A stretch of DNA of 32,000 bases from contig NC_010296.1 in NCBI RefSeq assembly GCF_000010625.1, forward strand, positions 900,001 through 932,000, read 5' to 3'. The position numbers and the translations under genes were made by a program. The stretch comes from Microcystis aeruginosa NIES-843. Its GTDB lineage: Bacteria; Cyanobacteriota; Cyanobacteriia; Cyanobacteriales; Microcystaceae. The notes under the pieces were generated by a model. It did no database searches. It saw nothing but the letters and a program-made list of their open reading frames with translations, and was not told where the DNA came from. This document shows positions 2,964-24,386 of this stretch, piece by piece (positions within the stretch are counted from its first letter, which is position 1; the number at the start of each line of letters is the position of its first letter).

Positions 2964-4334
2964 CTAATCGTTAGGATTTCTTTGAAGATAGGATTTAAAC
3001 ACAGGATTAATAGGAAAATAGGACGAGGTTTCTGATGGTAATTTATCCAGTAAACAGCGTCTAATTAATGACTGAATAGTTGCCCAAAATTCAGAAGTAG
3101 ATAAGTCAAGACTAGCAGTTTTTGGAAACTTTTCTACCGCTTCAGTTTGATTAGCTAACCAGTGCATCACCTTTTTTTCTGCTGCGGATAAACGCTGTAA
3201 ATGACATTCGATCGAGTTTTCTATATCCCCTAAATAAATTTCATTGTTCATTTGTTCTAAAAATAAGGATACTTCTCCATCAAATAGTTCAATAATGGTT
3301 GAGGAGATGATATTTAACCAGTTAGGATGACCTTGATAAAGTTCGCTCAGTTCCGTCCATTTCTCCTCATTTTTTAAACCGTATTCTTTGAAGATTTCTT
3401 CAAATTCTGTTGTTAAACCTTGCAGGTATAAAGTTTTAATTTTATCGGATTTTAAGGTGACAAAATCTCTGGGAAGTTCCCAACTAATTAAAATCAAACA
3501 ACTTTGATGAGATGTGGTAGCAATTTGCTGAAAAAATTTATGATAGTCCTGACAGTCGGGTAAATATTTACCTGCTAATTCCCCCTGTTTAAAAATATTC
3601 TGCACATCATCAAGAATAATTAAACAACGATAGGAGCTTAGATAATCTATTATATCAGGTAAGGGGGTTGATAGAGATTGGTTGAAAAACTGTTTTAGAT
3701 CATCTTTGAGAGCGATTAATTGAGGAATATTTTCCAGACTGCGATAAATAATATAATCAAATTGTGAGGCAATTTCTGAAATTAATTTAAGGGTTAAAGC
3801 TGTTTTTCCAATTCCAGTTAACCCATAAATGGTAATTAATCGAGTTTTATTATCTAGCCATTCTTTTAAGGTTGATATTTCTAACTTACGTCCACAGTTA
3901 TACATTAATTCTGGGGCTTTTGTTAAGTCAATCATGGGATATTGATCGTCATTGCGTAAAAATTTTCTTGTTTTTTTTCCATTATTAATTGTTTGTAAAG
4001 ATTGATCGCAAATATGAATATTTCCTTGATTAACTTGTAAACAATGACCGAAATTAGAAGTTTGAGAAACCCGATATTTTCTTTCTAACTTGGATCGTAA
4101 ATTATCTTTATTAACATCTTCGTCTAATACCTTACCCAACTTTTTCCATAAGTTAGCAGCCTCTTTTTTAATATGAGATTCACTACAACCATTAAAAGAT
4201 TGAGCAATTTGCCAATATTTTTGACCTTGCCAAACCCCTGTCAAGATTGCTTCTTGTACTGGTGTCAGATGAGACTCCACTTTCTCAAACATTAAATCAT
4301 CAACATATTGCAAAACTTGGTCAATATTATTCAT
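2964..4334 (-). CDS. STAND-type P-loop NTPase (NB-ARC/NACHT-like) with an N-terminal HTH-like module and no C-terminal repeat sensor
   Basis: 456 aa. Walker A is IYGLTGIGKTAL, and Walker B is CLIILDDVQNIF about 60 aa downstream. The N-terminal ~90 aa (LTPVQEAILTGVWQGQKYWQIAQSF...HIKKEAANLWKKLGKVL...V.K.NLRSKLE) resembles the short module seen at N-termini of many cyanobacterial NACHT/WD40 proteins. Divergent from the vWA operon. Confidence 0.8.
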   Translation of the reverse strand: MNNIDQVLQYVDDLMFEKVESHLTPVQEAILTGVWQGQKYWQIAQSFNGCSESHIKKEAANLWKKLGKVLDEDVNKDNLRSKLERKYRVSQTSNFGHCLQVNQGNIHICDQSLQTINNGKKTRKFLRNDDQYPMIDLTKAPELMYNCGRKLEISTLKEWLDNKTRLITIYGLTGIGKTALTLKLISEIASQFDYIIYRSLENIPQLIALKDDLKQFFNQSLSTPLPDIIDYLSSYRCLIILDDVQNIFKQGELAGKYLPDCQDYHKFFQQIATTSHQSCLILISWELPRDFVTLKSDKIKTLYLQGLTTEFEEIFKEYGLKNEEKWTELSELYQGHPNWLNIISSTIIELFDGEVSLFLEQMNNEIYLGDIENSIECHLQRLSAAEKKVMHWLANQTEAVEKFPKTASLDLSTSEFWATIQSLIRRCLLDKLPSETSSYFPINPVFKSYLQRNPND

Positions 4335-4582: not shown

Positions 4583-5383
4583 ATGTATCAAGAACTACTG
4601 AGTAGCGCCAAGCCTGGATTTATCCTGATTATGATTGATCAGTCAGCTTCAATGTCAGATAAATACGCTAATTCAAATAAAGCAGAGTTTGCCGCATTAG
4701 CCGTTAATCGAGTCATCGGAGAAATTATTACAGCTTGTTCATCGGGTAATGAGATTAAAGACAGATGTTTTGTGGCGGTGGTTGGCTATGGAGCAAGTAT
4801 TAGTATACTATTTCTAGACAAAGCCTCAGAGTTGGCTAAAAATCCCAATACAACAACCCTTAAGAGAAAAGTCTCTGATGGTGCAGGTGGGTTGGTTGAA
4901 GTGGATGAAGTAATGCGAGTGTTTGTGAAACCGACTGCAAGTAATGGAACACCAATGGCTGAAGCCTTTAAACAGGCTTATACTGGGGTAGAAAAATTTA
5001 TTTCTAATCATCCCGATAGTTTTCCACCCGTTGTTATTAATATAACCGATGGAGAACCTAATGATTCTAGTGCTGCTACTACTGAAGCGAAAAAACTAGC
5101 ACAACTTAAAACAAGTGACGGTAACGTGATTGTTTTGAATGCTCATATTTCTAACGCATCAGCAGGGAAAATAGAGTTACCTAGTGATAATGCTGGTTTT
5201 AGCAATAATAAATTTGCTAACTTTTTGTTTGATATTTCCAGTGTGCTTCCTGATCCTCTTGCTGAGAGTGCCAAAAATGCGGGTTTTAATGTTCAACCTA
5301 ATGCCAGAGGTTTTATCTTTAATGCTGATGCTGAAGCACTGATTAAACTTCTTCAATTTGGTTCTCAAGGAGCATTACGCTAA
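4583..5383 (+). CDS. von Willebrand factor type A (vWA) domain protein, TerY-like
   Basis: 266 aa. MIDAS DxSxS in ILIMIDQSASMSD, and a downstream metal-site motif in VVINITDGEPND. Rossmann-like alternation throughout. First gene of a three-gene operon. Confidence 0.85.
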   Translation: MYQELLSSAKPGFILIMIDQSASMSDKYANSNKAEFAALAVNRVIGEIITACSSGNEIKDRCFVAVVGYGASISILFLDKASELAKNPNTTTLKRKVSDGAGGLVEVDEVMRVFVKPTASNGTPMAEAFKQAYTGVEKFISNHPDSFPPVVINITDGEPNDSSAATTEAKKLAQLKTSDGNVIVLNAHISNASAGKIELPSDNAGFSNNKFANFLFDISSVLPDPLAESAKNAGFNVQPNARGFIFNADAEALIKLLQFGSQGALR

Positions 5384-5388
5384 AGTTA

Positions 5389-7026
5389 TTGTCATTAATT
5401 ATGGAATCTCATCATAAAGTTTCAGTCATCCGTCGGTTCAGTGATAGAACTCATAAAGAGATGGAAACCATTAGCGGTTGTCAAGATAATTTTAGCTATA
5501 ATGAAGCTAAGAATTGTTTTGCGATCGCCGATGGTGCAACTCAATCATTTTACTCAAGTATATGGTCAAAACTTCTTGTTGATTATTTTTGTGAAAATCC
5601 CCAGATTGATAAAAACAATTGGCAAGAATGGCTTGAACTAATTCAGCAAAAATGGTTAGAAGAAGTTAGAGCAGAATTAGAAAAAGCAAAAAGCGGTAAT
5701 AATTTTGCCTGGATTGAGATTTACAATGGTTTGGAACATTCTAAATCAGCAACATCTACCTTTATTGGGTTACAATTTATTGAAAATCAAGCAAAAATCT
5801 CAATTGTTGGCGATAGCTGTCTGTTTATTTTTCAGGGAAATCAATTAATTCAAACCTATTTATTGAAAAAATCAACGAATTTTAATGATAGACCTGGATA
5901 TTTTGGAAGTCGCTCTAAAAATAATGATGATTATGAGCCAGAGTTTTTAGACATCGAATTAAAATACAAACAACATTCAGATAAGCTTTATTTTGTACTA
6001 GCAACTGACGCTCTAGCTGAATATATTTTTAAATATACAGAACAGCAAAGAGATATTTTAACAACTTTACTTACCATTAATTCAGAACAGGAGTTTGAGA
6101 ATTTTGTAAAATCTGCTAGACATAATGGCACGATAAAAATGAAAAATGATGATGTCACTTTAATGATTTTAGAAGTCAGTGATGGTGAAATCGTCAGTTT
6201 GCCTACACAAACCAGAAAAGAAAATCAAAAAAATCCTCCTATCATTTTACCTTCAAGTAATGAAAATAAACAGCCTTTTAACGAAGATCAAAACAATTCT
6301 TCAAAAGTAGAAAAAGAACCTAAAGACAATACTCCTGCTGAAAATTTAGAAGTTACTTCTGGTTTTGCCAAAATAAGATCCAATCTACAAACATTATTAA
6401 AATTTCTGCCATCTTTACCCATGACGCACCGCAATTCGAGAGGAGTTTCTTCTTCAAGTCCTCAAGTGAGAGAAGACAAACCACCCGTAATTAAAGGAAT
6501 AGATGGAATCCGTAATCTTCTCCTTGTTTTTATTCCTTTAAATATATTCTTAACTATACTCTCCACTGCGACCATATTATATTTTATTTCTCAGACAGCT
6601 AACAAAATAAATAGTATAAAAACTGAACAATCAAGCAATTCAAATTCATCTAGTCAAGTCACTGAATATAAACCTAAATATATGAAGCTTGAAAAAGGAA
6701 ATAAAATCTACAAAGATCAAACTTTTCAAGAAATTATTATTCCTGCTTTATCTGACTCATCTCAGGTTTTAATTTTAGAAGAAGGAGACAAATGGATTAA
6801 ATTTCAGATTGATCTTTATGCTAATCAAGCAATCTTGAATCAATGTTCTACTTGTGCAGGGGATGAAATAGAAATAAAACCCAAGACAAATCTGAGAACT
6901 TTGGCTAGTGAATCAGAAAGGGATGTTTTTGGACAATTAAGCGAACCATCAAAGTTTAAAAAACTTGAATTTTATTCCCTTCCCGATTGGTCTAAATTTA
7001 CATTTGTGGGGTATGTAAAAAAATGA
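5389..7026 (+). CDS. PP2C-family protein phosphatase with low-complexity linker, single TM helix and ~145-aa C-terminal beta-rich domain
   Basis: 545-aa ORF from TTG 5389; a more likely ATG is at 5401. PP2C_2-like motifs are FAIADGATQSFYS, VGDSCLFIF and LATDALAEYIF. Hydrophobic segment NLLLVFIPLNIFLTILSTATILYFI lies at about nt 6514-6588. The stop overlaps the next gene's start (ATGA at 7023-7026). Confidence 0.8.
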   Translation: MSLIMESHHKVSVIRRFSDRTHKEMETISGCQDNFSYNEAKNCFAIADGATQSFYSSIWSKLLVDYFCENPQIDKNNWQEWLELIQQKWLEEVRAELEKAKSGNNFAWIEIYNGLEHSKSATSTFIGLQFIENQAKISIVGDSCLFIFQGNQLIQTYLLKKSTNFNDRPGYFGSRSKNNDDYEPEFLDIELKYKQHSDKLYFVLATDALAEYIFKYTEQQRDILTTLLTINSEQEFENFVKSARHNGTIKMKNDDVTLMILEVSDGEIVSLPTQTRKENQKNPPIILPSSNENKQPFNEDQNNSSKVEKEPKDNTPAENLEVTSGFAKIRSNLQTLLKFLPSLPMTHRNSRGVSSSSPQVREDKPPVIKGIDGIRNLLLVFIPLNIFLTILSTATILYFISQTANKINSIKTEQSSNSNSSSQVTEYKPKYMKLEKGNKIYKDQTFQEIIIPALSDSSQVLILEEGDKWIKFQIDLYANQAILNQCSTCAGDEIEIKPKTNLRTLASESERDVFGQLSEPSKFKKLEFYSLPDWSKFTFVGYVKK

Positions 7027-7121
7027 AATATCCGCTTATAACTGACTATGAAACAGTCGTAAAATACCCTGATAGATTTATATACGATGGTATTTTACAA
7101 CAAGGAAAGCCTGTTAAGCAA

Positions 7122-7303
7122 GGGAGCATCTCACTTACGCGATAAGTAATTATACTTAGCCTAAAAGCCACTCTTAATCGTGTCTTGGAACGAAATAGAG
7201 GCTTTTAAAGACTGCGTACATGGAGAATTAAAACAAGAATTACCCTCGAAAAGCCTATTTTTCCACTAAGTATTTATGCTCATTGCAAAGGTGAGATGCT
7301 CCC
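7122..7303. mobile_element. 182-bp MITE inserted in the kinase gene
   Basis: Terminal inverted repeats GGGAGCATCTCAC (7122-7134) and GTGAGATGCTCCC (7291-7303). Flanked by a perfect 9-bp TSD GTTAAGCAA (7113-7121 and 7304-7312). No coding capacity. Confidence 0.8.
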
Positions 7304-7723
7304 GTTAAGCAAAAGCAAAATCAGAACTTTTTACTGTCTCATAATGGCGGAAAAGCCGTTGTTTATGAAATTCAAACTAATCCTAAAAAATATGCCCTTA
7401 AATGTTGGATAGAAGATTTAGGGGATCTAAAAATTCGTTATAAGGCGATTGATGCCTATCTTAAAACAGTTCAACTTCCTTATTTTGTTGATTTTGCTTA
7501 CCAAGAACAAGGAATTTTAGTCAATGGACAAAGATTTCCCATTATTAGAATGGAATGGGTTGATGGTATTAGCTTTAAAGACTTTATATCTAATAATATT
7601 AATAACCCGACTTCTATCCGTAACTTTGCCGAAAAATTCTTAGAAATGGTTAAAATTTTCCATCAAAATAATATTTCTCATGGAGACTTACAACACGGTA
7701 ATATTATAGTGCGTAAAAATGGT

Positions 7724-9145
7724 GGCTCTTCGGGAATTGTTATGCAAATAATTAACTTAAAATAAAATTCGATGAGAGCGCCTACGCTCAAAAGTAGCTG
7801 AAATCCATATAGGGAAGGACTTAAGGCATCAACAGGTTAATACCAAAAGATAGACAATCGAGTTAAGATTTGATATAATAGCCAAAAACCAGAGTATTTT
7901 ACTTATGATACTTGACAAATTTTTGAACCTAGAAGGAACCTGTATTCAAGGCTATCGACACCTAGAAAATATCGGTATAGTTTGACCAGTCGAATCGAAA
8001 AATAAAAAAGCAACCTGTCCTCGTTGTGGCTTAGAAAGCGATAAACTCCACCAAAATCATCGACATTTAGTCAAAGATTTACCAATCTCAGGACAACCAG
8101 TGTACCTACAGGTTAATCGTCGTCAATTTAAGTGCGATAATTGTCGAAAACCCTTTAGCGAAGAGTTAGATTTTGTCGCCAAGAAACGAACCTATACGAA
8201 AAGACTAGCCGAGAATATACTCGAACAATTAAAAGAAGGAGATATTTTAAATGTTAGCCGAAGAAATAACGTAACGGAAGAAGAGATTCAAAGAATGGTA
8301 GAGGACATCGCCGAAGAAATTACAGAGCCAGATTTATCGAAATTAAAAAGACTAGGAATTGATGAAATCGCTCTAGTCAAAGGACAAAAAAATTACTGTG
8401 CGGTTTTAGTAAATTTAGATACGGGAAAACTAATAGCTATTCTAGAGAAGCGAACACAAGAAGAGTTGAGAGAAACGCTTACAGGCTGGGGAAAAGAGGT
8501 GTTAGAGCAAATTGAAGAAGTGAGCATAGACCTTTGGTTGCCCTATAAAAATTTGGTGAAAGAATTGATGCCATCGGCCGAGGTAGTCGCCGATAGATTC
8601 CATGTCATGAAACAAATTAATCAAGAGTTAGACGAACAGAGAAGAGCGGAAAAAAGAGCCGTAGAAGCGCAGAAAAATAAAAAACAGAAAGCAGAAAAAG
8701 AAGCAAAGCTAGAAGTTTTAAAGCGAAGTAAATATAGCCTGTTAAAAAATGAAGAAGATTTAACGGAACCCCAAAAAATTAAACTAGAAGCTATCAAAGA
8801 AAAATTCCCAAATTTGAAAAAGATGCAGGAATTAAAGGAAGAATTCAGAAAGATTTATGAAACCTCAGAGAATCCGACAGAGGGAATGCTATCCATCTCG
8901 GAATGGTTGGCAAAATCCTCCAGTGTTTTTACCAAGAGTTGTCAAACAATCCGAAACTGGTTTGGAGAAATCATTAGTTATTTTGAGCGAAGGACAACGA
9001 ATGGGGTGGTCGAGGGAATCAACAATAAACTTAAACTAATAAAACGGAGAGGCTATGGCTTGAGAAACTTTCGGAATTTTTGGGTTAGAAGTATGTTGTC
9101 TTGGCATCTTGTCTGTTGATTTAGCATAAAGGGTAACGAAGAGCC
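7724..9145 (+). mobile_element. ISL3-family insertion sequence (1422 bp) inserted in the kinase gene
   Basis: IRL is GGCTCTTCGGGAATTG at 7724; IRR is ...GGGTAACGAAGAGCC ending at 9145. 8-bp TSD AAAATGGT at 7716-7723 and 9146-9153. GG ends and an 8-bp TSD are typical of ISL3. Confidence 0.9.
7905..9119 (+). pseudogene. ISL3-family transposase with an in-frame TGA at codon 27
   Basis: ATG at 7905 is in frame with the 8100-9119 ORF. Zinc-finger-like CPRCG...CDNCRKPF N-terminus, and DDE region with ...IDEIALVKGQKNYCAVLV...ADRFHVMK... The stop TGA lies at 7983-7985. Confidence 0.8.
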
Positions 9146-9721
9146 AAAATGGTGATCTATGTTTAATTGACTATGATAGTTTATATGTTCCTCAATTAAG
9201 CAACGAAACCGACAATATTAAAGGACTCCCTGGTTATCAACATCCTAACAGAAATAAGTTATCTAAATTAAGTCCAAAAGCTGACTATTTCTCAGAAATG
9301 GTAATTTATTTATCATTGCTTGTTCTATCAGAAAATCCCAACTATTGGCAACAAATACAACCAGAGGAAAGACTACTATTTTCCGAAAAAGACCTAATTA
9401 AACCTAATTCATCCAAGATTTTTAAAGAACTTAAAAATCTTTCTCCTGAGATTGTGTATTTTACCCAAGAATTAGAGAAATTTTGTCAACAATCAAATAT
9501 TGAAAACCTACAACCTCTTGAAAATTTAGTCAACAATTACACAGGAGCTAAATGGAGTTTTGTGCCTCCTACTAACCCTATTCCAATCGTTACTTCACCT
9601 GTTCCTGTAGTTAATCCCGCATTTCTCACAAACTGAATTAAGAACCTAATTTGGAGGTTAAAAGTTGGTGTTTTTCAAAAATAAGAGAAACCCGCTTAGT
9701 TATCAAGGAATAATCTGAATA

Positions 9722-10755
9722 TAGCAATTCTTGGAGCTATGAGGTACAATAGAAAGTAAATAGACAAATAATAGAACTTACCAGCTTCCTATGAGACCCT
9801 ATTCCGTAGATTTTCGCCAAAAAATTATCGATGTCTGGAAGAAAGAAAAAATTTCCATTCGAGGACTAGCCCAGAGATTTGACGTGGCTAAAAGCTTTAT
9901 TCAGAAGTTATTGAAGCAACATAAAGAAACAGGAGATATCCGTCCTCGTCCGCAAGGGGGAAGTCCGCCAACCAAGTTAAATAGTGAACAACTGATAATT
10001 TTAATAGAAATCATCGAAGCTAACAATGATGCAACTCTCGAAGAATTATCGGACTTACTGTATGAAAAGACACAGGTGAAAGTCAGTAGAGCCACCCTGG
10101 GGCGGCTTACGCAAAAACTCAATTACAGTTTCAAAAAAAAACACTACACGCGGCGGAAAAAGAAAGTGACAGGGTACAGCAAAAAAGAGTGGAATACTGG
10201 TCAGAAGTTCGGGAAATTGAGGCATCAAAACTAATTTTCATCGATGAATCGGGGGTAAATTTAGCCCTTTTGAGACTCTATGCTAGAGCCTTAATTGGCC
10301 GAAGAGCTCGGGGAAGAAAACCACAAAAAAGAGGGAGAAATATTTCAATAATTAGTGCTATAAGCTGAGAAAAAGTTGTCGCATCAGTCAACATATACGG
10401 TGCAGTGGATGCGGTAACATTTGAAGGATTTATTCTAAAGGAAGTGCTGCCAAAAATTAAAGAAGGAGACTGTCTGATCATGGATAACGCCAAGATTCAT
10501 CTCGGAGAAATGGTCAGAGAAATAATCGAACAAGAAAAAGCTAGACTCATCTATTTACCTCCTTATTCTCCCGAATTCTCTCCTATTGAAAACTTTTGGT
10601 CAAAAGTGAAAGCGACGTTAAGAAAACTGAAGGCGAGAACTTACAAAGACTTAATAGAAGGGATTGAATTGGCTATGTTAGAAGTTACTCAAAAAGATAT
10701 TCGCAATTGGTTTACTCACTGTTGCTACTGTACCTCATAAGTCAGAGAATTGCTA
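9722..10755 (+). mobile_element. IS630-family element (1034 bp) nested in IS1380 copy A
   Basis: Imperfect ~26-bp IRs: TAGCAATTCTTGGAGCTATGAGGTAC / GTACCTCATAAGTCAGAGAATTGCTA. TA duplication at 9720-9721 and 10756-10757. The empty site is visible in copy B (about 22140-22150), with one substitution. Confidence 0.85.
9791..10740 (+). pseudogene. IS630-family transposase (frame change at an A9 run, plus an in-frame TGA)
   Basis: HTH N-terminus from 9791. Continuation requires a -1 shift at A9 (10133-10141). The downstream frame (LIFIDESGVN...DNAKIH...YLPPYSPEFSPIENFWSKVK) contains TGA at 10366-10368. Confidence 0.8.
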
Positions 10756-11098
10756 TAAACTAATCAAAAAATTCCTGAATTACTGGAAAAATTCCGTCAA
10801 TTAGGGAAAATGTTCACGACAAAGTTAGCTGAATTTATAAGCAGCCATTTTTAAGACTATTTAATGATCTTTGAAAACTCTTCAACTTATCCAGTTCCCG
10901 CTATCGCTTGAATTCTAGAGTAAGCTATCGCTAAAATATCTTGATAGGGACAAGAACTGGCAATTGCGATTAAAATTCTTCTGACACTAACAGTAATTCT
11001 AGCTCCTAATTTAAGGAAATTAAGGCGAATTGTTCCCACTGTCGCTTTGGCAAAAGAAGTTTTAGCCAAACAATTTTGACGAAAAGCTTGCATTAAAA

Positions 11099-13172
11099 CC
11101 CACATTCCGCACCCTAAGTGTCACAACGTCTCAAAAGAGGAAGGGGCGCGAGTCAAAATACTTATCTAGAGGAGTGAGTTGGCGGCAAGCTGCCGGCAAC
11201 TAAGCCGAAAATTTCAGAGTTCCCCCGGTCATTCTCAATAAACAGTGCTTGTTGAGAATGACTAGGCAATCAGACTTAACATCTAGGGGGAGATGTTCCA
11301 GTTGCTCGCTTTGTTTTGTCACCCCTTGAAGTCAATCCATCTGGTCAAGATAAGAGATAATATTCCTGGCAAGGTTTGGGAAAAAATCTCAAAATGTTGC
11401 GCCTCTCATCCGTTAAGTTGCTAATCTTTTGATTGTCTTGAATACGGACGAGATGAATCCCTTGAAAGCACTGAAATATCCAGCGTAACGTCGGTCGGTC
11501 AGTTAACTTACCCAACGGATTTTTCAGTCCCGTCTCCTGCTGTTTTAAACTTAAACGAAGTTGTCTTTGACCAATAGTATAAACCAGCAGGCACAAGCCC
11601 ATGAGCATGGCCATGACCTCGATTCTATGGGGAGATTTGAGAAAGACACTGTGGGCAAAAAAGCAGGGGTCTTTGAGAAAAGAAAATCCTCTTTCCGGAG
11701 CTTGTTGCCCTTTATATTTTTTGAGTATATCCTCACTGCTTAATCGTTGTTTCTCCAAATCGTTAGTTGCTAAAACGAATCGTCCTGCTCGTTTCTTTAG
11801 CCTCTCAATGGCGGTCAAATTCAACTCTAATTCGGCTTGAACTTGATAGCTTTGAGAGGGTAAATCGTCTTTTGATTTGAGTTTTGACCCCTGGGACTCA
11901 GGCGGAATGAGATTGACTTTAATCTCCGTTAACTGATGAGATTTTAAGGAGTCAGATAATCCTTTGGCTATCGCCAACGCCACCGCTCTATTCTCAAATT
12001 CTCTTCGGGATAGTTGCCGGATTTTTTCTTGGGCAGAATTCTTTTCCTGCTCGATTTTTTTCTCTAATTTTTTCAAGTCTGATTCTTGTCTAGCTTGACT
12101 TTCAACTAGCAACCATCTTTGTTCTATCCCCCCATAGTTAGAGATGGTTTCCCGCCAGGAATAACCCGGTATTTCTGAATCGGTTAACTCTTTTTCTGAG
12201 ATGCTATCAACCAACTCTTGAGCCTCTTTAATGCTTAATGGTACTCGAGACAACCAACGCATTTCTTTCATTAGTTTTAAATTCTCTTTGCTATAGAGGG
12301 CGCTATCGCCGACTATTAAACTGTCAAAGTCAACTTGTTTTTTAAATTCTCGGGCGATTTGACCAAAAACCGCTTTGTCCGCTTCATTTCCGTCCCCTAC
12401 TTTCAGGAATAAAGGTACATCTCCATCCCCACTTACGATTAAGTCAATCATAAATTGTTTTAAGTCAGGTCTTCGGTCGCGGGAGTATCCGTAGGTAATT
12501 TTTATTGGCTGTTGTCTGGTTTCAATTTCTTCTCCCACTGCTCCTGATTTCAGGATTTCTACTGTTGGGTATTCCTTGTTATATTCTCCTTCTACTGATA
12601 GAGAAGTCGAATCTAAATGGGAGTTCTCGGTTGCTACACCAAATTTTTTCACGGCCGCTAAACTAATCAGTAGGAAAATGACCGAAACATTAAGTTGATA
12701 AAGTTTGTCCATTACTCGACCAATTTTATCATCATTCAGGTGTTTTGGTTCGATGCCCTCTCCCAGCAGATGTTCGGTTGCTTTATCTTCAAAAAATTGA
12801 GGAAATAAATACAAGGCTCGGGAGACAAATCCCAATCCATTCAGGATAATTGCTTTCACGACTTGCCCAGCTGTGACAATTTCTCCTCGCTCAATTGAGA
12901 CTTGTTCGTTGATAATTTCAACGATTCCTATTTCATCGATAATTCCGGCTACTAATCCCAGATGGTCTAGATTTTTGACTTCAATTTCTGTTGATTGATT
13001 CATGGTCGAACAGTCCACTCGCCTCAGTTTTCCAACAATTCCTATTTTTTCATAATTAGGGGTCTCAAGACCCCCCTAGCGGCCACCGAGAAAACCTTCA
13101 CCAGCTAGGTATTTTTACTCAAGTCTCTGGAGGGGGACAGCTTATGTGACAGTTGAGGGTGCGGAATGTGGG
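11099..13172 (-). mobile_element. IS1634-family element (2074 bp) nested in the IS1380 copy A transposase gene
   Basis: IRs CCCACATTCCGCACCC (11099-) and GGGTGCGGAATGTGGG (-13172). 6-bp TSD TTAAAA at 11093-11098 and 13173-13178. The uninterrupted target is seen in copy B. Confidence 0.85.
11345..13018 (-). CDS. IS1634-family (IS4-related) DDE transposase, apparently intact
   Basis: 557 aa. The N-terminus LDHLGLVAGIIDEIGIVEIIN...VVKAIILNGLGFVSRALYLFPQFF is characteristic of IS1634-type transposases. Confidence 0.9.
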   Translation of the reverse strand: MDCSTMNQSTEIEVKNLDHLGLVAGIIDEIGIVEIINEQVSIERGEIVTAGQVVKAIILNGLGFVSRALYLFPQFFEDKATEHLLGEGIEPKHLNDDKIGRVMDKLYQLNVSVIFLLISLAAVKKFGVATENSHLDSTSLSVEGEYNKEYPTVEILKSGAVGEEIETRQQPIKITYGYSRDRRPDLKQFMIDLIVSGDGDVPLFLKVGDGNEADKAVFGQIAREFKKQVDFDSLIVGDSALYSKENLKLMKEMRWLSRVPLSIKEAQELVDSISEKELTDSEIPGYSWRETISNYGGIEQRWLLVESQARQESDLKKLEKKIEQEKNSAQEKIRQLSRREFENRAVALAIAKGLSDSLKSHQLTEIKVNLIPPESQGSKLKSKDDLPSQSYQVQAELELNLTAIERLKKRAGRFVLATNDLEKQRLSSEDILKKYKGQQAPERGFSFLKDPCFFAHSVFLKSPHRIEVMAMLMGLCLLVYTIGQRQLRLSLKQQETGLKNPLGKLTDRPTLRWIFQCFQGIHLVRIQDNQKISNLTDERRNILRFFPKPCQEYYLLS

Positions 13173-15265
13173 TTAAAACATAAGCCATTGATGACAACCA
13201 AAGTCTTAATTGATTACTCTCAAATGTCTGTGTCGAATTCCGGTCAGCAAATAAGTCTAATTGTTGCTCTTTAATTCGATTTGACCTCTCACCTCTGGGG
13301 CAATATTTTTCAGTGTAAAGTTTAGATGGGGGAATCTTTGATGCAGGTAAAGAAGTCACAACGTGGCGAATTTTTACGCCCTCACTACCAGGACAAACTT
13401 TTGTCACCACTCTTCTTGAACGGCTCCAGGATTTTTGGGTTTGATAACATAGGGAACGATACCAAGTCGATTCTGGTACCAATTTCGCCAATTCTCCTAA
13501 CTCTTCATCGGGAGAAAATAACGTCTCCATTAATTCAGTAACTGGCTGAAGTCTTTGCTCGTAATCTGCCTTAGCTTTCTCAATTACATCGGTCGCTCGT
13601 AATTTTAATTGACTATTCGTTGCCATTGCTAAAACATAATCAACTCCTGCTTGACTTTCGCAAAATTTCATGATATCTTCACGGGAATAGGCACTATCTC
13701 CTCGTACTAATATCTGCGTATCTGACCATTTTTCTCGAATTATACCGATTATTCGCTGCAATTCTTCTAATGCTCCCCCAGCAGTATCTACATGAGAAGA
13801 CCGGAGTTTAGCTACTAATAAATGATGCTCACAGAAAATATACAAAGGAGCATAACACACTCCTTTATAATAAGTATTGAAAAACGCTCCCTCTTGATTT
13901 CCATGCACTTGGTCATCGGTGACATCCATGTCTAAAATAATTGGTTTCGGTGGCTTTTTGTAGGATTCTAGAAAGATGTCCACAAAAGCTTTTTCAATTT
14001 CTTTGGGGTTAGGCTCGATTTTATGGTAACGACTGTTCTCTTGATTGATGACTGTTTCCGGACAATATTCTAGTCGATTAATTGTACTTTTTCCCGCTAA
14101 ATTTGCTTGGGCTGAGTCAATAAAATTTAGTTTTTTCAATGCTATTGCTAAAGCTGGAGCATGACGTAATTTATCATGATCATTGACATCCTCATATCCC
14201 AAAAATATCCCATAAACTCTTTGTGCGAGTAGTTCATGAACTGAATAATCTAGATATGATGAATTTCGATAATCTCGAAAACATTCGGCAAACCGAGCCG
14301 TTATTTTTAGCTTTTGGTCTAACTCTGCCATCAAAATAATTCCTGCATCTGAGGTGATTTTTCCTCCCTCAAAATTAGCGATTACTTGTCTTCCATTGAG
14401 GTTTCCAAAATTTAATTGATTGAGTCGAGACTGGTCTGAACTAGGAGTCATAAACTTGACATACTTTAAATAGTTTTAATGATTAAATTATAGCAAGCTT
14501 TTGACTTCATTCTCTACTTAAAATTGAGACTTTATCAACTAATTAACCTAAAAATACGCATTTTAAATTTGTTCTTTTTTCAAGGTCTAATTGATGATGA
14601 GCTTAAGTTGAATCCTAACAACACACTGTCGTTTTTGCTACAAGGCGATCACCCAGTCAAAACCCAGATTTTGTAAGGCTTCGGGGGTTGGTGATCGTAC
14701 TTTTTGTGAGAAATGCGGGGTTACTGGAGCGAAAAAATCCAACAACTGAAAAAAGACCTCAAAAAAATTACCGATGACCAAGAGGAAAACTATCGTCAGC
14801 GTCAGATTCAATGGATGGAAGCAACGCTAACGGCCGTGATCGTCAGCGAGGAACAGGGAGAGATCGACAAATTCCAGAAACACGGGTTAGATATTACCAG
14901 CCATCGCAGTGTGATCAAAAACGGCTTTCAACTGGCGGACGGTAAAAGGATCAGCCCAGAAAATGCCTTTAAACAAGCCGATCACCCCTTTCGGATCGCC
15001 ATCGTCTGCGCCATGTGGTTGACCGGTTTCGATGTTCCCTCCCTCTCCACCCTCTACCTCGATAAACCCCTGAAAGCTCATACGCTCATGCAAGTGATCG
15101 CTCGTGCTAACCGGGTTAACGAGGGCAAAACCAACGGTTTAATCGTGGATTACTGCGGAATCCTCAAAAATCTCCGTCAAGCTCTCGCCGATCTCGCCCA
15201 AATTTCCGATCAGGGACGTGGCGAAGACCATCTTAGTCTCGACCCCACGAAACCGCAAGAAAATT

Positions 15266-16212
15266 GGTAATGATTCGGTAGTAGTGGCGTAGCTCTCTTG
15301 CTTACCTGGTATGAATTGTGTAAAATATTTATTAATAAAAATAATTGGCTCGAATCAGTCTTTAAACCTCTAGCTTGATCATGACTTTTCTGATAAATAT
15401 CTTTTTCTGGCTCCTGTCTGGCTTACTGAAATATCAGTCTAGCACCGAACAAAGTACCCCCTTCACCTCCGTTCCCCTGTCCTAATTGTGGTTCTCACCA
15501 TACGATCAAGAATGGTTCTATTCATAATGGAAAACCCAAACGTCAAGGTAAAGAATGTGGTCGTCAGTTGGTGATCAATCCCACTAATAAAACCGTCTCT
15601 GACGAAACCAAACAATTAATTGATAAACTCTTGCTCGAACGAATTTCCTGACGAGGAATTGCTAGAGTAACAGGGGTAAGTTGGTCATGGTTACAAAATT
15701 ATGTCAACAATAAACTGGCGGCTGTCCCCCGTCAAATAAAGGTTTCGGACAAACCAAAAGGTAAATTGGTTAGAGAATGTGATGAAATGTGGTCTTTTGT
15801 TTTTTCTAAGACGATAAAGGTCTATATTTGGCGGTTAATTGATAAAAATGCAAGGGAAATTATTGGTTGCTATGCGCGGAGATAGGAGTCGTCAATCAGC
15901 CAAAAAACTTTGGGCTAGTTTACCAGGTGTTTACCGACAATGTGCAGTTGCTTACACAGACTTTTGGGAGTCATATAAGACAGTAATTCCCAGTAAACGT
16001 CATCGACCAGTCGGGAAAGAAACTGGTCAAACTAATCCTATTGAAAGATTAAATAATACCTTTCGACAAAGGATTTCTCGGTTGGTGAGAGAGAGTCTAT
16101 CTTTCTCTAAAAAAATGGAGAATCACGTTGGGGCTGTTTGGTATTTTATCCATGACTACAATGCACACCTGGCAAAGGATTAAGCCGCCATCACTACTAC
16201 AGAATCACCACC
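15266..16212 (+). mobile_element. IS1-family element (947 bp) in hsdR
   Basis: IRs GGTAATGATTCGGTAGTAGTG / CACTACTACAGAATCACCACC (18 of 21 match). 8-bp TSD AGAAAATT at 15258-15265 and 16213-16220. Confidence 0.8.
15478..16183 (+). pseudogene. IS1-family transposase, degraded (in-frame TGA and a frameshift)
   Basis: CPNCGSHHTIKNGSIHNGKPKRQ.KECGRQ...LLLERIS*RGIARVTGVS with TGA at about 15648. The frame changes near 15870-15885 into ...GDRSRQSAKKLWASLPGVYRQCAVAYTDFWESY...IERLNNTFRQRISRLVRESLSFSKK. Confidence 0.7.
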
Positions 16213-17027
16213 AGAAAATTTACTGGATGAATTGGCCCGATCGAGGCAGTTAAAGAATTTTTGGGGGAAAGTAACGCATCCCTAGACGCGCTCCTCGAAT
16301 ATAAAATACCTAGTTTTGCCTTCAATAAAGCTATTAACGACGCGAAGGAAGCGATCAATCGAAGTGATCAGGCCCGACAAAATTTTGGACTCCTCTCTCA
16401 AGAGGTCTTCCATCTTTTTAAGGCCTGTCTTAATCAGCCATCGGTTAATCACTACCGTCCGGCTCACGACACGATTAAACTGATCTATAAATGCATTCAA
16501 GGTGATCGGGAGAAAATAGACATCGCGGAAATTCTCTTGGAAATGCGATCGGTAATCGACGGGGCGATCGATGTAACCACCGAAGCGAGGGCCGATGATA
16601 CCCCACTGTACGACATCAGTAAAATCAACTTCGAGCGTCTGAAACAGGAATTCGCCAATAGCGATCGTAAGAATACCACCGTCCAAACTCTCAAAAACGC
16701 CATCGAAAACCGTCTCCGAACAATGCTCGAGCAGAATCTGCAACGGACGAACTTTCAAGAGCATTACGAGCAGATCATCGCTGATTATAATTTCGAGAAG
16801 GATCGGGTGGCGATCGAACAGACCTTCGAGGCCTTATTGGGACTTAAACGCCAAATAAAGATCAAATCGAGTATAATCGTTAAAGAGTAAGCACTTTACG
16901 TTGAAAGATCAGCGATGAAAGAGACAACCCCAGCCGCAATGCCCCCATGCTTTGACCGATGGTGTCGGCGGTTTGACAATTGCTTCAAAAACGAAGCGCA
17001 AAAAAACGGCTTCAGACAATATTTAGG

Positions 17028-17237
17028 GTCTGCTGAAAAAGTTTTTCCTAGGGGCAGGGTGTAGGGTGTGGGGTGTGGGGTGTGGGGTTTTACCGATTTT
17101 GAGGGGGTCAATTACCTAATTTTCAGGGAAAAAGTCCCTGAATTTACCCCTGATCACTCCCATATCTGGTACTTTTTGAGGGGAAAAAAGTCCAAAAGTC
17201 TTATCCAACAAGGTTTTTAGATTTATTCAGCCAGCCC
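17028..17237. mobile_element. About 210-bp MITE inside the IS701 transposase gene
   Basis: 8-bp TSD TATTTAGG at 17020-17027 and 17238-17245. Imperfect terminal IRs (G)GTCTGCTGAA / TTCAGCCAGCC(C). No coding capacity. Confidence 0.7.
17051..17097 (+). repeat. G-run / GGGGTGT heptamer repeat tract (potential G-quadruplex) inside the MITE
   Basis: GGGGCAGGGTGTAGGGTGTGGGGTGTGGGGTGTGGGG: six G3-4 runs separated by 2-3 nt. Confidence 0.6.
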
Positions 17238-18208
17238 TATTTAGGAGGATTATTAGGGGAAAGTGAGAGGAAAAACCTCACTCAAATGGCCAATAATGCC
17301 GTCGGAGTAGTTTATAACCGATTACATCACTTTTTGACCGAATCTCCTTGGTCAGACCGTCAGGTGAATGAATGTCGGTTGCAAGTGATGAACCAATGCC
17401 GCCAGACGCAAATCCCCCGAGGATTTTCCCTGATTGTCGATGACTCAGGACATCGAAAAAGTGGCAATCTGACCGCCGGAGTTGGCAGGCAGTACCTAGG
17501 AGAAATTGGCAAGACAGACAACGGAATAGTCGCCGTCACTACCCATCTCTACGACGGCAAAAAAAGTGTACCCCTAGACATTGAAATTTATCAACCGGCT
17601 AGTTCCTTAGCCGAGGGGAAAGAAGACAAAGAATTTAAGAAGAAACCGGAGATAGCGATAGATTTAATTGACCGGAGCTTAACCAGAGGCTATCGACCGA
17701 AAATCGTCTTAATAGATGCTGGTTATGGCAACAACACAAATTTTCTCAAAGCCCTGGAAGAAAGAAAGCTAAAATACTTAGGAGGATTGGCAAAAAATCG
17801 AAAAGTAATTATTGAAAAAGAAGGGGGTGTGGAAGAAACAATCCAGCTTGAGCAACTAGCAAAAAGCCTATCAGAAAAGGATTGGGAGAAAATCACCCTA
17901 AATCTAGATAAAGAAAAAACGGTTTGGGTAGCGGTATTCAGAGCGAAAATATCTCAACTAGAAGGAGAAAGGAACTTGGCGATCGTCATGAATGCAAGTT
18001 CAATGGAAAAAGCCACAGAGGTGGACTATTTCATCACCAATGTAGTTGAGGCAGATACAGTAACAGCGTCGTGGATAGTCAAGACTTACACCGAAAGAAA
18101 TTGGGTGGAAGTATTCTACCGAGAAGCCAAAGGATGGTTAGGGTTAAGGGAATACCAAGTCAGGGATAAACGAAGCTTACTTCGTCATTTTATCCTGGTG
18201 TTTTGTGC

Positions 18209-18628
18209 CTATACATTTATCCTGTGGCATAAGTTAACTGGGGGATTGCAAAGGCAGTGGGCGAATCGACCTTTAAACACTTTTGTGGAAGCCTTGGAAG
18301 CTTTTCGGACAGCGATGTCTTTCCGTTTCTTTGAGTGGCTGACCGAGAATCGGGATGTGTTTGCCGCTTACAAAGCCAGTTTAGGCTTTGTTTGGGCTTG
18401 AAATTTGTTTAAGTCCCACTATACATTTATCCTGTGGCATCAGTTAACTGGGGGATTGCAAAGGCAGTGGGCGAATCGACCTTTAAACACTTTTGTGGAA
18501 GCCTTGGAAGCTTTTCGGACAGCGATGTCTTTCCGTTTCTTTGAGTGGCTGACCGAGAATCGGGATGTCTTTGCCGCTTACAAAGCCAGTTTAGGCTTTG
18601 TTTGGGCTTGAAATTTGTTTAAGTCCCA
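18209..18628 (+). repeat. Tandem duplication (2 x 210 bp) of the IS701 3' end, including its terminal IR
   Basis: 18209-18418 and 18419-18628 differ at the 2 positions I spotted (CATAAG/CATCAG and GATGTG/GATGTC). Each unit ends in GTTTAAGTCCCA. Confidence 0.85.
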
Positions 18629-18736
18629 TTATTAGAATTTATTCAGGAACTCGATCAAGAGTCCCAACGGGCGGTTAGCGAGGGATTAGACGAGGAATCC
18701 CTCGCCCTGTTCGACCTTTTAACCAAAGAGAATCTA

Positions 18737-19820
18737 AGTACCTAGGCAAAATTAATTACATACTCGCCTCCAAAATTGTCCAGCACTTTTTTAACGTAAG
18801 CGAGGAGGCTCTTTCGGTCTTTATAGGCGCTAAATTCAATCCATTCATATTTTAAAAATCTCCATAATATTTCAATTAAATTTAAATGAGGTGAATAAGT
18901 GGGCAACCAAAATATTTTCAAGTTTTTCTTTTCCCATTCCTCAAGTTTCTCCATAAATGCCTCGCTGGTATGAATGGAAGCTTGGTCAATTATTATGACA
19001 GTTTTTTTCTGTATATTTTGGCAATATTTATCCAGAAAATTAATAACTATCTCGCTAGTAAACGTTCCGACCTGTGTCTCATAAAATAATTGATTATCTC
19101 GTTTCATTATTCCTAAAATATTTAGTCTTTTACCTTCAATTGGTGGTAACTTTATCGTGGTTTTTTCTTCTTGCCAAGCCTCAGGAATACAAGGCTTTGA
19201 ATCCCCTCCCATTTCATCCAAATATCCTATCTCAATCTCTCCTCTTTTTTCCTGTTTTTTTAGTTCTTCTAAAATAGGTAGTTTGACCTCAAGCTCCCAC
19301 TCATCAGGGGTTTTGGCGACCCCTCTTCTCACCCTTTTCCACCTCATGTTGATTTTTTTTATGAGTCTTTTTATCGTGTCTTTGCTTACGGTTAATTTCC
19401 CTTCTTCTACAATTTTTATCTGGATTTTTTTTAAGCTTTTCGGTTCTTCTTTTACCCAGTCAATAACTTGTTGACCTTGGGCTTCTGTCAATTTAGGTTT
19501 TCTCCCTCTTCCTCGACGATTATAAAAACCAATTAGTTTTCTATCTTCCCAGGCCGTCAACCAATTATAGATGGTCTTTCTCGTAACTCCAAATATTCCG
19601 CTCAATTCTTCTATCGTGGTTCCCTGAAAACTTAAGAGTATACATTTCGCTCGCTCTCTTACTTGATGATGTTTACTAGCTCGATAAATTCTCTCTAGCA
19701 TTTTCTGGCTCTCGGGGTTTAGGTCTCTAATCAATCTCATTGTATTTTCCTGCTGCTTCGTTTTTTTATGTATTATACTTCTTAATTTTTTATTTGGGTA
19801 ATTAATTTTGCATGACTACT
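18737..19820 (-). mobile_element. Second, unrelated IS630-family element (1084 bp) in hsdR
   Basis: IRs AGTAcctagGCAAAATTAATTAC / GTAATTAATTTTGCatgacTACT. TA duplication at 18735-18736 and 19821-19822. Excision restores ...KENLSPQDIEK... in frame. Confidence 0.85.
18742..19740 (-). CDS. IS630-family transposase, apparently intact
   Basis: 332 aa. HTH N-terminus (ELSGIFGVTRKTIYNWL) and DDE region (IIIDQASIHTS...WLPTYSPHLNLIEILWRFLKYEW). Confidence 0.9.
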   Translation of the reverse strand: MRLIRDLNPESQKMLERIYRASKHHQVRERAKCILLSFQGTTIEELSGIFGVTRKTIYNWLTAWEDRKLIGFYNRRGRGRKPKLTEAQGQQVIDWVKEEPKSLKKIQIKIVEEGKLTVSKDTIKRLIKKINMRWKRVRRGVAKTPDEWELEVKLPILEELKKQEKRGEIEIGYLDEMGGDSKPCIPEAWQEEKTTIKLPPIEGKRLNILGIMKRDNQLFYETQVGTFTSEIVINFLDKYCQNIQKKTVIIIDQASIHTSEAFMEKLEEWEKKNLKIFWLPTYSPHLNLIEILWRFLKYEWIEFSAYKDRKSLLAYVKKVLDNFGGEYVINFA

Positions 19821-20257
19821 TATCACCGCAAGACATTGAAAAAATTAAACAGATCGCCACGCAGCTTTTGAAAACCCTAAAACAAGAGAAACTAAAGATC
19901 GATCGTTGGCTAGATAAAGAATCCAGTCGGGCGGAGGTTAAAACTACTATTCACAACTTTTTATACAGCGATGATACTGGTTTACCCGTCGATCTCTACA
20001 CGGAAGAAGAAGTGGAAGAAAAAACGGAAGAAGTCTTCCGCCACATCCGGCGAGTTTATCCGAGTCTGCCTTCGCCTTATTACAGGTCGGCTGCCTAGAT
20101 TCTGGACTGTCCATATTTCGCTTTTCCGAAGTTGCTGATTTTAGCTCTAATAATCATCACCGTTCCTAAATGGTTGCTCCGATTTTTTGTAGTAAAGTTA
20201 TACTATTAAGGAAGCAAAGACGAAATTCTAAGTAGGTGGGTATTAAAAATTGTCAGA

Positions 20258-20310
20258 CACCCCCATGATCAAGGAGGATCCCCCCGCCTATCGGCACCCC
20301 CCTTATCAAG
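20258..20310. repeat. Left, degenerate part of the C-run/G-run palindromic array split by the IS4 insertion
   Basis: CACCCCCATGATCAAGGAGGATCCCCCCCGCCTATCGGCACCCCCCTTATCAAG. It ends in the 9-bp target CTTATCAAG. Confidence 0.6.
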
Positions 20311-21992: not shown

Positions 21993-22040
21993 GGACAAAA
22001 TCTATCTTCAATTTAATTGAAACCACTTACTTAGGGTTAA

Positions 22041-24028
22041 CCCGCATTTCTCACAAACTGAATTAAGAACCTAATTTGGAGGTTAAAAGTTGGTGTTTTT
22101 CAAAAATAAGAGAAACCCGCTTAGTTATCAAGGAATAATCTGACTAAACTAATCAAAAAATTCCTGAATTACTGGAAAAATTCCGTCAATTAGGGAAAAT
22201 GTTCACGACAAAGTTAGCTGAATTTATAAGCAGCCATTTTTAAGACTATTTAATGATCTTTGAAAACTCTTCAACTTATCCAGTTCCCGCTATCGCTTGA
22301 ATTCTAGAGTAAGCTATCGCTAAAATATCTTGATAGGGACAAGAACTGGCAATTGCGATTAAAATTCTTCTGACACTAACAGTAATTCTAGCTCCTAATT
22401 TAAGGAAATTAAGGCGAATTGTTCCCACTGTCGCTTTGGCAAAAGAAGTTTTAGCCAAACAATTTTGACGAAAAGCTTGCATTAAAACATAAGCCATTGA
22501 TGACAACCAAAGTCTTAATTGATTACTCTCAAATGTCTGTGTCGAATTCCGGTCAGCAAATAAGTCTAATTGTTGCTCTTTAATTCGATTTGACCTCTCA
22601 CCTCTGGGGCAATATTTTTCAGTGTAAAGTTTAGATGGGGGAATCTTTGATGCAGGTAAAGAAGTCACAACGTGGCGAATTTTTACGCCCTCACTACCAG
22701 GACAAACTTTTGTCACCACTCTTCTTGAACGGCTCCAGGATTTTTGGGTTTGATAACATAGGGAACGATACCAAGTCGATTCTGGTACCAATTTCGCCAA
22801 TTCTCCTAACTCTTCATCGGGAGAAAATAACGTCTCCATTAATTCAGTAACTGGCTGAAGTCTTTGCTCGTAATCTGCCTTAGCTTTCTCAATTACATCG
22901 GTCGCTCGTAATTTTAATTGACTATTCGTTGCCATTGCTAAAACATAATCAACTCCTGCTTGACTTTCGCAAAATTTCATGATATCTTCACGGGAATAGG
23001 CACTATCTCCTCGTACTAATATCTGCGTATCTGACCATTTTTCTCGAATTATACTGATTATTCGCTGCAATTCTTCTAATGCTCCCCCAGCAGTATCTAC
23101 ATGAGAAGACCGGAGTTTAGCTACTAATAAATGATGCTCACAGAAAATATACAAAGGAGCATAACACACTCCTTTATAATAAGTATTGAAAAACGCTCCC
23201 TCTTGATTTCCATGCACTTGGTCATCGGTGACATCCATGTCTAAAATAATTGGTTTCGGTGGCTTTTTGTAGGATTCTAGAAAGATGTCCACAAAAGCTT
23301 TTTCAATTTCTTTGGGGTTAGGCTCGATTTTATGGTAACGACTGTTCTCTTGATTGATGACTGTTTCCAGACAATATTCTAGTCGATTAATTGTACTTTT
23401 TCCCGCTAAATTTGCTTGGGCTGAGTCAATAAAATTTAGTTTTTTCAATGCTATTGCTAAAGCTGGAGCATGACGTAATTTATCATGATCATTGACATCC
23501 TCATATCCCAAAACTATCCCATAAACTCTTTGTGCGAGTAGTTCATGAACTGAATAATCTAGATAGGATGAATTTCGATAATCTCGAAAACATTCGGCAA
23601 ACCGAGCCGTTATTTTTAGCTTTTGGTCTAACTCTGCCATCAAAATAATTCCTGCATCTGAGGTGATTTTTCCTCCCTCAAAATTAGCGATTACTTGTCT
23701 TCCATTGAGGTTTCCAAAATTTAATTGATTGAGTCGAGACTGGTCTGAACTAGGAGTCATAAACTTGACATACTTTAAATAGTTTTAATGATTAAATTAT
23801 AGCAAGCTTTTGACTTCATTCTCTACTTAAAATTGAGACTTTATCAACTAATTAACCTAAAAATACGCATTTTAAATTTGTTCTTTTTTCAAGGTCTAAT
23901 TGATGATGAGCTTAAGTTGAATCCTAACAACACACTGTCGTTTTTGCTACAAGGCGATCACCCAGTCAAAACCCAGATTTTGTAAGGCTTCGGGGGTTGG
24001 TGATCGTACTTTTTGTGAGAAATGCGGG
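22041..24028 (-). mobile_element. IS1380-family element, copy B (1988 bp, uninterrupted)
   Basis: 17-bp perfect terminal IRs CCCGCATTTCTCACAAA / TTTGTGAGAAATGCGGG. Same orientation as copy A. The right flank TAAT (24029-24032) matches the left flank of copy A (9612-9615). Confidence 0.9.
22276..23760 (-). CDS. IS1380-family DDE transposase, intact
   Basis: 494 aa. The N-terminus F.GGKITSDAGIILMAELDQKL.I...FAECF.D.R......H....LLAQRVYGI.LGYEDVNDHD.LRHAP is typical of IS1380-type transposases. Confidence 0.9.
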   Translation of the reverse strand: MTPSSDQSRLNQLNFGNLNGRQVIANFEGGKITSDAGIILMAELDQKLKITARFAECFRDYRNSSYLDYSVHELLAQRVYGIVLGYEDVNDHDKLRHAPALAIALKKLNFIDSAQANLAGKSTINRLEYCLETVINQENSRYHKIEPNPKEIEKAFVDIFLESYKKPPKPIILDMDVTDDQVHGNQEGAFFNTYYKGVCYAPLYIFCEHHLLVAKLRSSHVDTAGGALEELQRIISIIREKWSDTQILVRGDSAYSREDIMKFCESQAGVDYVLAMATNSQLKLRATDVIEKAKADYEQRLQPVTELMETLFSPDEELGELAKLVPESTWYRSLCYQTQKSWSRSRRVVTKVCPGSEGVKIRHVVTSLPASKIPPSKLYTEKYCPRGERSNRIKEQQLDLFADRNSTQTFESNQLRLWLSSMAYVLMQAFRQNCLAKTSFAKATVGTIRLNFLKLGARITVSVRRILIAIASSCPYQDILAIAYSRIQAIAGTG

Positions 24029-24386
24029 TAATTGGGGTTTTACATCTAATAATTCTACTCCATCCCCATACCCTCCTCCCTCAAGTCAAGGATGGACTTT
24101 CTCCCCTAACGGAGTTCAAAAGCCATCTCAAACCAGTCCAAAAAATACAACATCTTCAGATCCCTGGAAAAAACTTGAACCCAATTCATCAAGTGCTTGG
24201 GATAAATTTGACACGGGTAAAACACCACCTCCAACAGATTGGGATAAACTCACTCAAGAACCTCCAAAAGAAGCACCAGTACCTATCCCAGATGAAAACA
24301 TTTGGGATAAATTTGATAATATTTGGAAGAAACTTACAACATCCGTATCATCTATTTGGAACAAAATTTTGAACTGGTTTAATTAG
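24029..24386 (+). pseudogene. 3' end of the triad kinase gene (W-rich C-terminal tail), displaced 14.4 kb by the IS1380-bounded unit
   Basis: Joining 9615 to 24033 (dropping one TAAT copy) gives ...SPVPVVN-WGFTSNNSTPSPYPPP... in frame for 117 codons up to the stop at 24384-24386. The ORF-track start at 23997 lies inside the IS end. Confidence 0.75.

Follow-up and report, generated by a model that had tools for sequence, protein, structure and literature searches.

A PP2C phosphatase with a predicted transmembrane helix and a new SH3b-like C-terminal domain in a TerY-P locus of Microcystis aeruginosa NIES-843

The TerY-P triad was defined by Anantharaman et al. (2012) and reported as anti-phage by Gao et al. 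(2020), as summarised in PMC11090510 and PMC7699616. It consists of a von Willebrand A (vWA) protein, a PP2C phosphatase, and a kinase with a C-terminal zinc ribbon or OB fold (PMC11090510), and the two summaries describe it as acting against T7-like phages. No paper linking Microcystis with TerY-P was found in the literature that we searched. In this study, we analyzed the open reading frame (ORF) at positions 5389..7026 (+ strand) of a 32,000-nucleotide stretch of the Microcystis aeruginosa NIES-843 genome (NC_010296.1, 900,001 to 932,000; hereafter the window). By its profile matches and gene order, this ORF is the phosphatase of a cyanobacterial TerY-P triad composed of the TerY vWA protein, PP2C, and a Ser/Thr kinase. 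Its product carries a polar linker, a single predicted transmembrane (TM) helix, and a compact all-β domain after the catalytic domain. We propose that it may be a membrane-anchored phosphatase whose β domain lies outside the membrane.

In pairs of PASTA-domain Ser/Thr kinases (PknB/PrkC/StkP type) and their cognate PP2C phosphatases, one partner spans the membrane and exposes putative wall-binding repeats. The Microcystis locus is similar in combining a Hanks-type kinase with a PP2C, one of which is predicted to span the membrane, but here this partner would be the phosphatase and not the kinase, and the outer domain is SH3-like and not of the PASTA type. In PstP from Mycobacterium tuberculosis, an intracellular PP2C catalytic domain of approximately 237 residues is followed by a juxtamembrane region, a single TM helix, and, outside the cell, a C-terminal domain of 191 residues (PMC3052367). 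The window protein is predicted to share this overall layout, which is therefore not new in general; however, PstP has a housekeeping role, regulating cell-wall kinases outside any vWA triad, whereas the protein described here belongs to the TerY-P subfamily. New in this study are a predicted PstP-like layout within a TerY-P triad, an outer domain that forms a new family, and the sharing of this domain with ubiquitin-like systems.

The first gene of the triad, at 4583..5383 (+), adjoins the ORF and encodes a TerY-like vWA protein, which fits the PADLOC TerY model with an E-value of 1.6e-59 and gives weak matches to Pfam VWA and VWA_2. The ORF itself, which encodes PP2C, linker, TM helix, and β domain, has 545 codons from its TTG start; public orthologues begin at the ATG at 5401 (541 residues), which is likely the true start rather than the TTG. 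Microcystis proteins that carry the annotation PP2C family phosphatase are 99 to 100% identical to its product. The order TerY, PP2C, and kinase is kept in the intact orthologous loci.

The initial annotation had divided the protein into a PP2C-type N-terminal domain, a polar low-complexity linker, one hydrophobic segment, and a β-rich C-terminal region, and all four parts were recovered. The catalytic domain (residues 17–264; 5437..6180, +) matched the PADLOC TerY-P PP2C model with an E-value of 4.2e-35, and its Pfam PP2C_2 score was 23.7 bits against a cut-off of 24; four relatives scored 26.8 to 31.2 bits. The acidic residues of the CQD, ADG, GDS, TDA, and NDD motifs were invariant among 13 diverse family members, in which D33, D48/G49, D142, D207, and D254/D255 were all conserved, and these acidic residues would be expected to bind metal. 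The profile match and the conserved acidic residues place the domain in the PP2C/PPM family, where it appears to be a diverged member. The linker (residues 265–376; 6181..6516, +) is rich in Ser, Pro, Asn, Lys, and Glu and could not be aligned between family members. Among 120 Microcystis orthologues, it was the most variable region, with a mean majority frequency of 0.92 versus 0.98 for the domains.

The single predicted TM helix (residues 377–401; 6517..6591, +), which had initially been placed at 6514–6588, reached a maximum of 2.14 in a 19-residue Kyte–Doolittle scan and was the sole peak above 1.6 in the protein; the peak extends over residues 373–401. A matching single hydrophobic peak directly precedes the C-terminal domain in each of the full-length relatives, including the E2/JAB fusions described below; its position and hydrophobicity are conserved across the relatives and its sequence is not. 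The helix is followed by a Ser/Asn-rich spacer of 26 residues (QTANKINSIKTEQSSNSNSSSQVTEY; residues 402–427; 6592..6669, +), the length of which varies across the family.

The C-terminal domain comprises 118 residues (residues 428–545; nucleotides 6670–7023). AlphaFold2, run with a 19-sequence alignment, modeled it as a compact all-β unit with a mean predicted local distance difference test score (pLDDT) of 95.9 and a predicted template modeling score (pTM) of 0.87. The strands of the model fall into two groups, and each half of the domain contains one of them. The first half (residues 428–484; 6670..6840, +) has strands at domain residues 3–7, 22–24, 31–38, and 42–52, and the second half (residues 489–545; 6853..7023, +) is SH3b-like. 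In the Microcystis orthologues the domain is conserved at 0.987, compared with 0.983 for the catalytic domain. Two Tyr positions and one Trp position are invariant in it, and its consensus reads L.KG..IY.D..L...LI.SL.N...VLI.EEGD.WIKF..DLYA..S.I..C..C...EIEI....NLR..P.......FG.L....KFKKL.....P.W.KF.F.GYIKK.

The resemblance to bacterial SH3-like folds that the initial annotation had noted was partly supported, for the second half. Pfam SH3_3 matches (E < 0.1) were obtained in 5 of 19 relatives, all of them in the second half, and the best reached an E-value of 5.5e-6 and 26.9 bits against a cut-off of 27; faint SH3_4 matches in relatives fell mostly in the first half. The best PDB match of the second-half profile was the SH3b structure 2KRS (E = 0.045), and the alignment covers the pattern NLR..P...G.L....W..f.G. 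Modeled alone, the second half gave a pLDDT of 86, and its Foldseek list was topped by 2KRS and consisted mostly of SH3 domains, including bacterial ones (2KYB, 9OVI, NlpC2, and YrvJ). Like SH3_3, SH3_4, and 2KRS, the second half displays the pattern xNLRxxPs...vfGxL...kf..le....W.Kf.f.G; the domain would differ from SH3b in being a pair of half-barrels, which AlphaFold2 models as one rigid body. An hhalign comparison of the two halves gave P = 1.4e-4 over 33 columns, suggesting an internal duplication; the first half resembles the second as a diverged repeat would. When searched against the PDB, the first-half profile gave spurious matches alone (for example, stathmin and PI5P4K). Our reading of the alignments and the model is that the domain may be a fused pair of SH3-like half-barrels that are remote kin of SH3b. 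"SH3b-like" is thus a fair description and not an established membership, each of the SH3 signals being subthreshold. The domain is described in none of the libraries searched (Pfam, NCBIfam, PDB, and BFVD) and constitutes a new family in this respect.

When the helix-plus-domain region was searched exhaustively with HMMER against 1.84 billion representative proteins, just 23 of them matched, and nearly all the full-length matches were proteins of 460 to 550 residues composed of PP2C, linker, one hydrophobic helix, and the domain. A word-indexed homologue search with the C-terminal 126 residues returned only 10 short Microcystis-type fragments. We also surveyed one genome per species (GTDB) with the conserved PP2C motifs and obtained 77 loci, in nearly all of which a TerY gene lies directly upstream of the PP2C gene and in most of which a kinase gene lies downstream. 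Just 9 of these species-level loci, which all belong to cyanobacteria, carry the extension (Microcystis, Microcoleus, Laspinema, Geminocystis, Richelia, Floridaenema, Dolichospermum, and two uncultured lineages). In Melainabacteria, Actinomycetota, Planctomycetota, and others, the PP2Cs mostly have 245 to 275 residues and lack a hydrophobic segment. These results indicate that the extension is a lineage-restricted addition rather than a trait of the triad in general. They agree with the initial view that the layout is not part of canonical TerY-P, and they rule out an extension that is universal and already annotated, given the 9 of 77 loci and a PADLOC PP2C profile of just 242 positions.

Several loci of the survey depart from the common arrangement. 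In the Pseudanabaenaceae locus L013 (2845–3966), the triad PP2C has 373 residues with a TM-grade segment at residues 320–341 and no β domain, and it may be an intermediate or reduced form. The PP2C and kinase are fused into proteins of approximately 830 to more than 1400 residues in Verrucomicrobia (L025, L027, L035, and L042) and in some, not all, Umezawaea loci (L031, L033, and L041); the verrucomicrobial fusions have TM-grade segments around residues 600–660. The extended PP2C of an uncultured cyanobacterium (L014, 3539–7179) lacks ~110 residues at its N-terminus, and 1.6 kb separate it from TerY, which suggests another disrupted copy of the system. In L001 (182–742), a 186-residue ORF directly before the kinase gene contains only the TM helix and the β domain and has stop codons upstream in all three frames; it is either an independent form of the module or what remains of a PP2C that was deleted.

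The window locus is like TerY-P in that its TerY and PP2C fit the PADLOC TerY-P models and in the gene order shared with the orthologous loci. By contrast, its PP2C adds the linker, the TM helix, and the 118-residue β domain, which are missing from the PADLOC profile and from the 60-odd non-cyanobacterial loci, and its kinase tail shows neither a zinc ribbon nor an OB fold, as judged from Cys content and Pfam only. A conserved, divergently oriented STAND NTPase gene is present as a neighbor, and the kinase is a pseudogene in the window. The STAND-type NTPase, with an N-terminal helix-turn-helix (2964..4334, −), matched Pfam NB-ARC, AAA_14, ATPase_2, and GerE, and its orthologues carry HTH_VMAP-M9. 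It is a recurring neighbor of cyanobacterial triads, located upstream of TerY in L006, L008, L009, L011, L012, L014, and L017 and retained in divergent orientation in most loci with an extended PP2C.

One match in the representative search, P0149, contained no phosphatase; it has an E2-like region, a JAB domain, a TM helix, and the same β domain. A search with P0149 found six further such proteins among 73 E2/JAB homologues. When the PP2C-type domain profile, which was built without P0149, was compared with the E2/JAB-type profile by hhalign, the two matched with 99.3% probability (E = 2.8e-20, 111 columns). The genes for the E2/JAB fusions (for example, L083 3379–5217 and L085 7001–8950, both with the TM helix and the double SH3-like domain) lie in operons with genes for ThiF (E1), a small protein, E2, a second JAB, and Prok-RING proteins, and by their gene content these operons are prokaryotic ubiquitin-like systems. 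The helices of the fusions are very hydrophobic, with a simplified insertion energy down to −6 kcal/mol, as calculated on a scale after Hessa et al. 2005. The helix-plus-domain module is therefore portable, and its occurrence on two unrelated cytoplasmic enzymes is how a targeting or sensor module would behave.

The likely orientation of the window protein was deduced from hydropathy and flank charges, which gave one TM-grade helix with a positive-inside bias, as a PstP-like layout would require. Wherever a member shows a clear TM peak, the 15 residues flanking the helix on its N-terminal side contain at least as many Lys and Arg as the C-terminal flank, and in nearly all members they contain more (typically 3–7 vs 0–3). 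The ~376 residues that precede the helix include no segment resembling a signal peptide, and no TM-grade segment was found in the kinase, TerY, or STAND proteins. The soluble partners, the lack of a signal peptide, the charge bias, and the matches to wall-associated SH3b all argue for a topology in which the N-terminal phosphatase would be inside and the β domain outside.

The whole is best explained by a membrane-anchored phosphatase with an outer β domain acting as an envelope-gated TerY-P switch, a reading toward which we lean, if only slightly. The catalytic domain and the disordered linker would lie on the cytoplasmic side, one helix would cross the membrane, and the rigid 118-residue domain would be located on the far side, in the periplasm or possibly the thylakoid lumen. 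The phosphatase would oppose the kinase by acting on TerY, the kinase itself, or both, and would thus keep the phospho-switch off at the membrane. The outer domain would bind an envelope component, for which peptidoglycan is a first guess because the domain resembles SH3b, and this binding would position or gate the phosphatase. A disturbance of the envelope would then shift the balance between kinase and phosphatase and turn the system on. Sensing of the envelope or cell wall by the outer domain would be plausible. The domain layout, the confidently predicted fold, the narrow distribution, and the portability of the module are computed results, whereas the topology, the ligand, and the signaling logic are inferred.

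In NIES-843, the kinase gene is broken. The kinase is intact in other Microcystis strains, with 443 residues, and in the orthologous loci L002 to L012, and we located its pieces in the window by tblastn with the intact kinase of strain PCC 9432, all on the + strand: residues 1–33 at 7023..7121; residues ~30–168, including the catalytic loop HGDLQHGN, at 7301..7724; residues 168–324 at 9146..9615; and residues 323–443, the Trp-rich tail, at 24015..24383. Three insertions separate them. The first (7122–7303) resembles a miniature inverted-repeat transposable element (MITE) and consists of 182 non-coding nucleotides with 45-nucleotide terminal inverted repeats (GGGAGCATCTCAC...). The second (7723–9146) is an ISL3-family element with 26-nucleotide inverted ends and a 339-residue transposase encoded at 8100–9119. 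The third, a block of 14.4 kb (9616–24028), consists almost wholly of transposase genes (IS630-like, DUF4277/DDE_Tnp_1, DDE_5, DDE_3, Tn5-like, and DDE_Tnp_1_4), to which two pieces of a gene for a type I restriction R subunit are added (14713–15270 and 16261–16890), and it looks like a mobile-element junkyard within a defense locus. The TerY, PP2C, and STAND genes are of full length, and the DNA spanning them shares 98% identity with that of the kinase-intact strain PCC 9432, so the disruption looks recent. In the NIES-843 genome, the complete switch is probably not active, and the initial suggestion that the triad senses envelope events is inapplicable to this strain as it stands. The disruption says nothing on the ancestral function, and the architecture is real and conserved at the species level. 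In the orthologous kinase of L002 (9623–10954), Pfam detected kinase-domain families only. The tail (residues ~320–443) has a Pro-rich stretch, no domain detected by Pfam, and no Cys, which excludes a zinc ribbon. It contains six W-x-[KR]-[FLI] motifs (WTKL, WDKF, WDKL, WDKF, WKKL, and WNKI), which could represent an amphipathic membrane-binding tail or a repeated peptide ligand.

Several observations count against the envelope-gated switch. No intact Ser/Thr kinase gene adjoins the PP2C gene in the window, and with the kinase in four pieces the triad cannot work as a triad there. Pro and Asn occur within the helix of the window protein, for which the simplified insertion energy is only about +0.7 kcal/mol. 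The C-terminal region of the window protein had no match in the Pfam, NCBIfam, and PADLOC scans, and none of the 19 relatives reached the SH3_3 gathering threshold. The second-half matches in Foldseek all had E-values of 1.6 or higher, with TM-scores of 0.43 to 0.58. No structural neighbor of the whole 118-residue model was found by Foldseek in the PDB or BFVD; the search gave only scattered unrelated matches (best E-values, 0.056 in the PDB and 0.061 in BFVD; PDB TM-scores up to ~0.3), which makes a fold assignment for the entire unit impossible. Several family members and the E2/JAB versions lack the CxxC in the loop between the halves; this Cys pair is thus weak evidence for an oxidizing compartment, and we did not rely on it as a sign of a periplasmic disulfide.

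The helix and outer domain might serve only as a membrane tether or oligomerization device, perhaps setting the phosphatase beside the kinase, without any sensing. Anchoring alone seems useful, as the L013 protein keeps a TM segment after its PP2C without a β domain; moreover, the tryptophan motifs of the kinase tail might form membrane-seeking amphipathic helices, and a ligand-binding site was not identified in the domain. However, a rigid domain of 118 residues that is conserved like the catalytic domain exceeds the needs of a tether, and its recruitment into an unrelated enzyme system is what one would typically see for a sensor or targeting module, so that we regard a pure tether as possible but not probable. 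It is also conceivable that the hydrophobic segment does not span the membrane and that the SH3-like domain is cytoplasmic and binds, for example, the Pro/Trp-rich kinase tail. Proline-rich peptides are the classical ligands of SH3 domains, and the tail is Pro-rich with repeated W-x-K-[LF] motifs; the stop codon of the PP2C gene overlaps the kinase ATG (ATGA at 7023), suggesting that the two proteins are made together, and the insertion energy of the window helix is marginal. Against this arrangement, an uncharged stretch of 19 to 25 residues that keeps its hydrophobicity and not its sequence is the signature of a membrane anchor. The stretch lies between two low-complexity spacers, with a positive N-terminal flank in the members with a clear peak; the E2/JAB fusions have much more hydrophobic helices, and the sequence matches are to SH3b of the bacterial extracytoplasmic type. 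A cytoplasmic domain is accordingly quite improbable.

The PP2C gene of NIES-843 could also be a functionless leftover of a decaying defense locus, its reading frame being still intact. The kinase gene is broken by the 182-nucleotide MITE-like insertion, the ISL3 element, and the 14.4-kb block, and the related PP2C in L014 is truncated at its N-terminus. Nevertheless, the PP2C, TerY, and STAND genes are of full length, and besides their DNA identity to the kinase-intact PCC 9432, the PP2C protein is 96% identical to its orthologue in that strain, which makes mere decay a poor candidate.

The region is flanked by two copies of psbA (D1; 360 residues each) in direct orientation, at 555–1637 and 25990–27072. 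The PCC 9432 locus has a single partial psbA, which matches both window copies at 96%, and the psbA pair could mediate recombination across the locus. A Uma2-family endonuclease gene (1755–2324) and a YafQ/ParE-type toxin gene (2604–2891) lie between psbA and the STAND gene and fit a defense and mobile-element island.

Extending the envelope-gated switch to the E2/JAB systems, the TM helix and double SH3-like domain might be a new extracytoplasmic sensor that feeds one envelope signal, either wall damage or a phage component entering the periplasm, into two unrelated cytoplasmic immune chemistries: the TerY-P phosphorylation switch in cyanobacteria and E1, E2, RING, and JAB conjugation in other bacteria. 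We consider this shared sensor speculative and, taken as a whole, rather unlikely; if true, it would give a first hint of the signal to which TerY-P responds. The anti-phage activity of TerY-P has been validated by experiment, and a subfamily with a phosphatase predicted to cross the membrane and to bear a conserved folded domain offers the testable idea that the switch reads the envelope. Defining the C-terminal domain would improve the annotation of both TerY-P and prokaryotic ubiquitin-like systems, and as Microcystis is a bloom-forming organism, its phage defenses are ecologically relevant.

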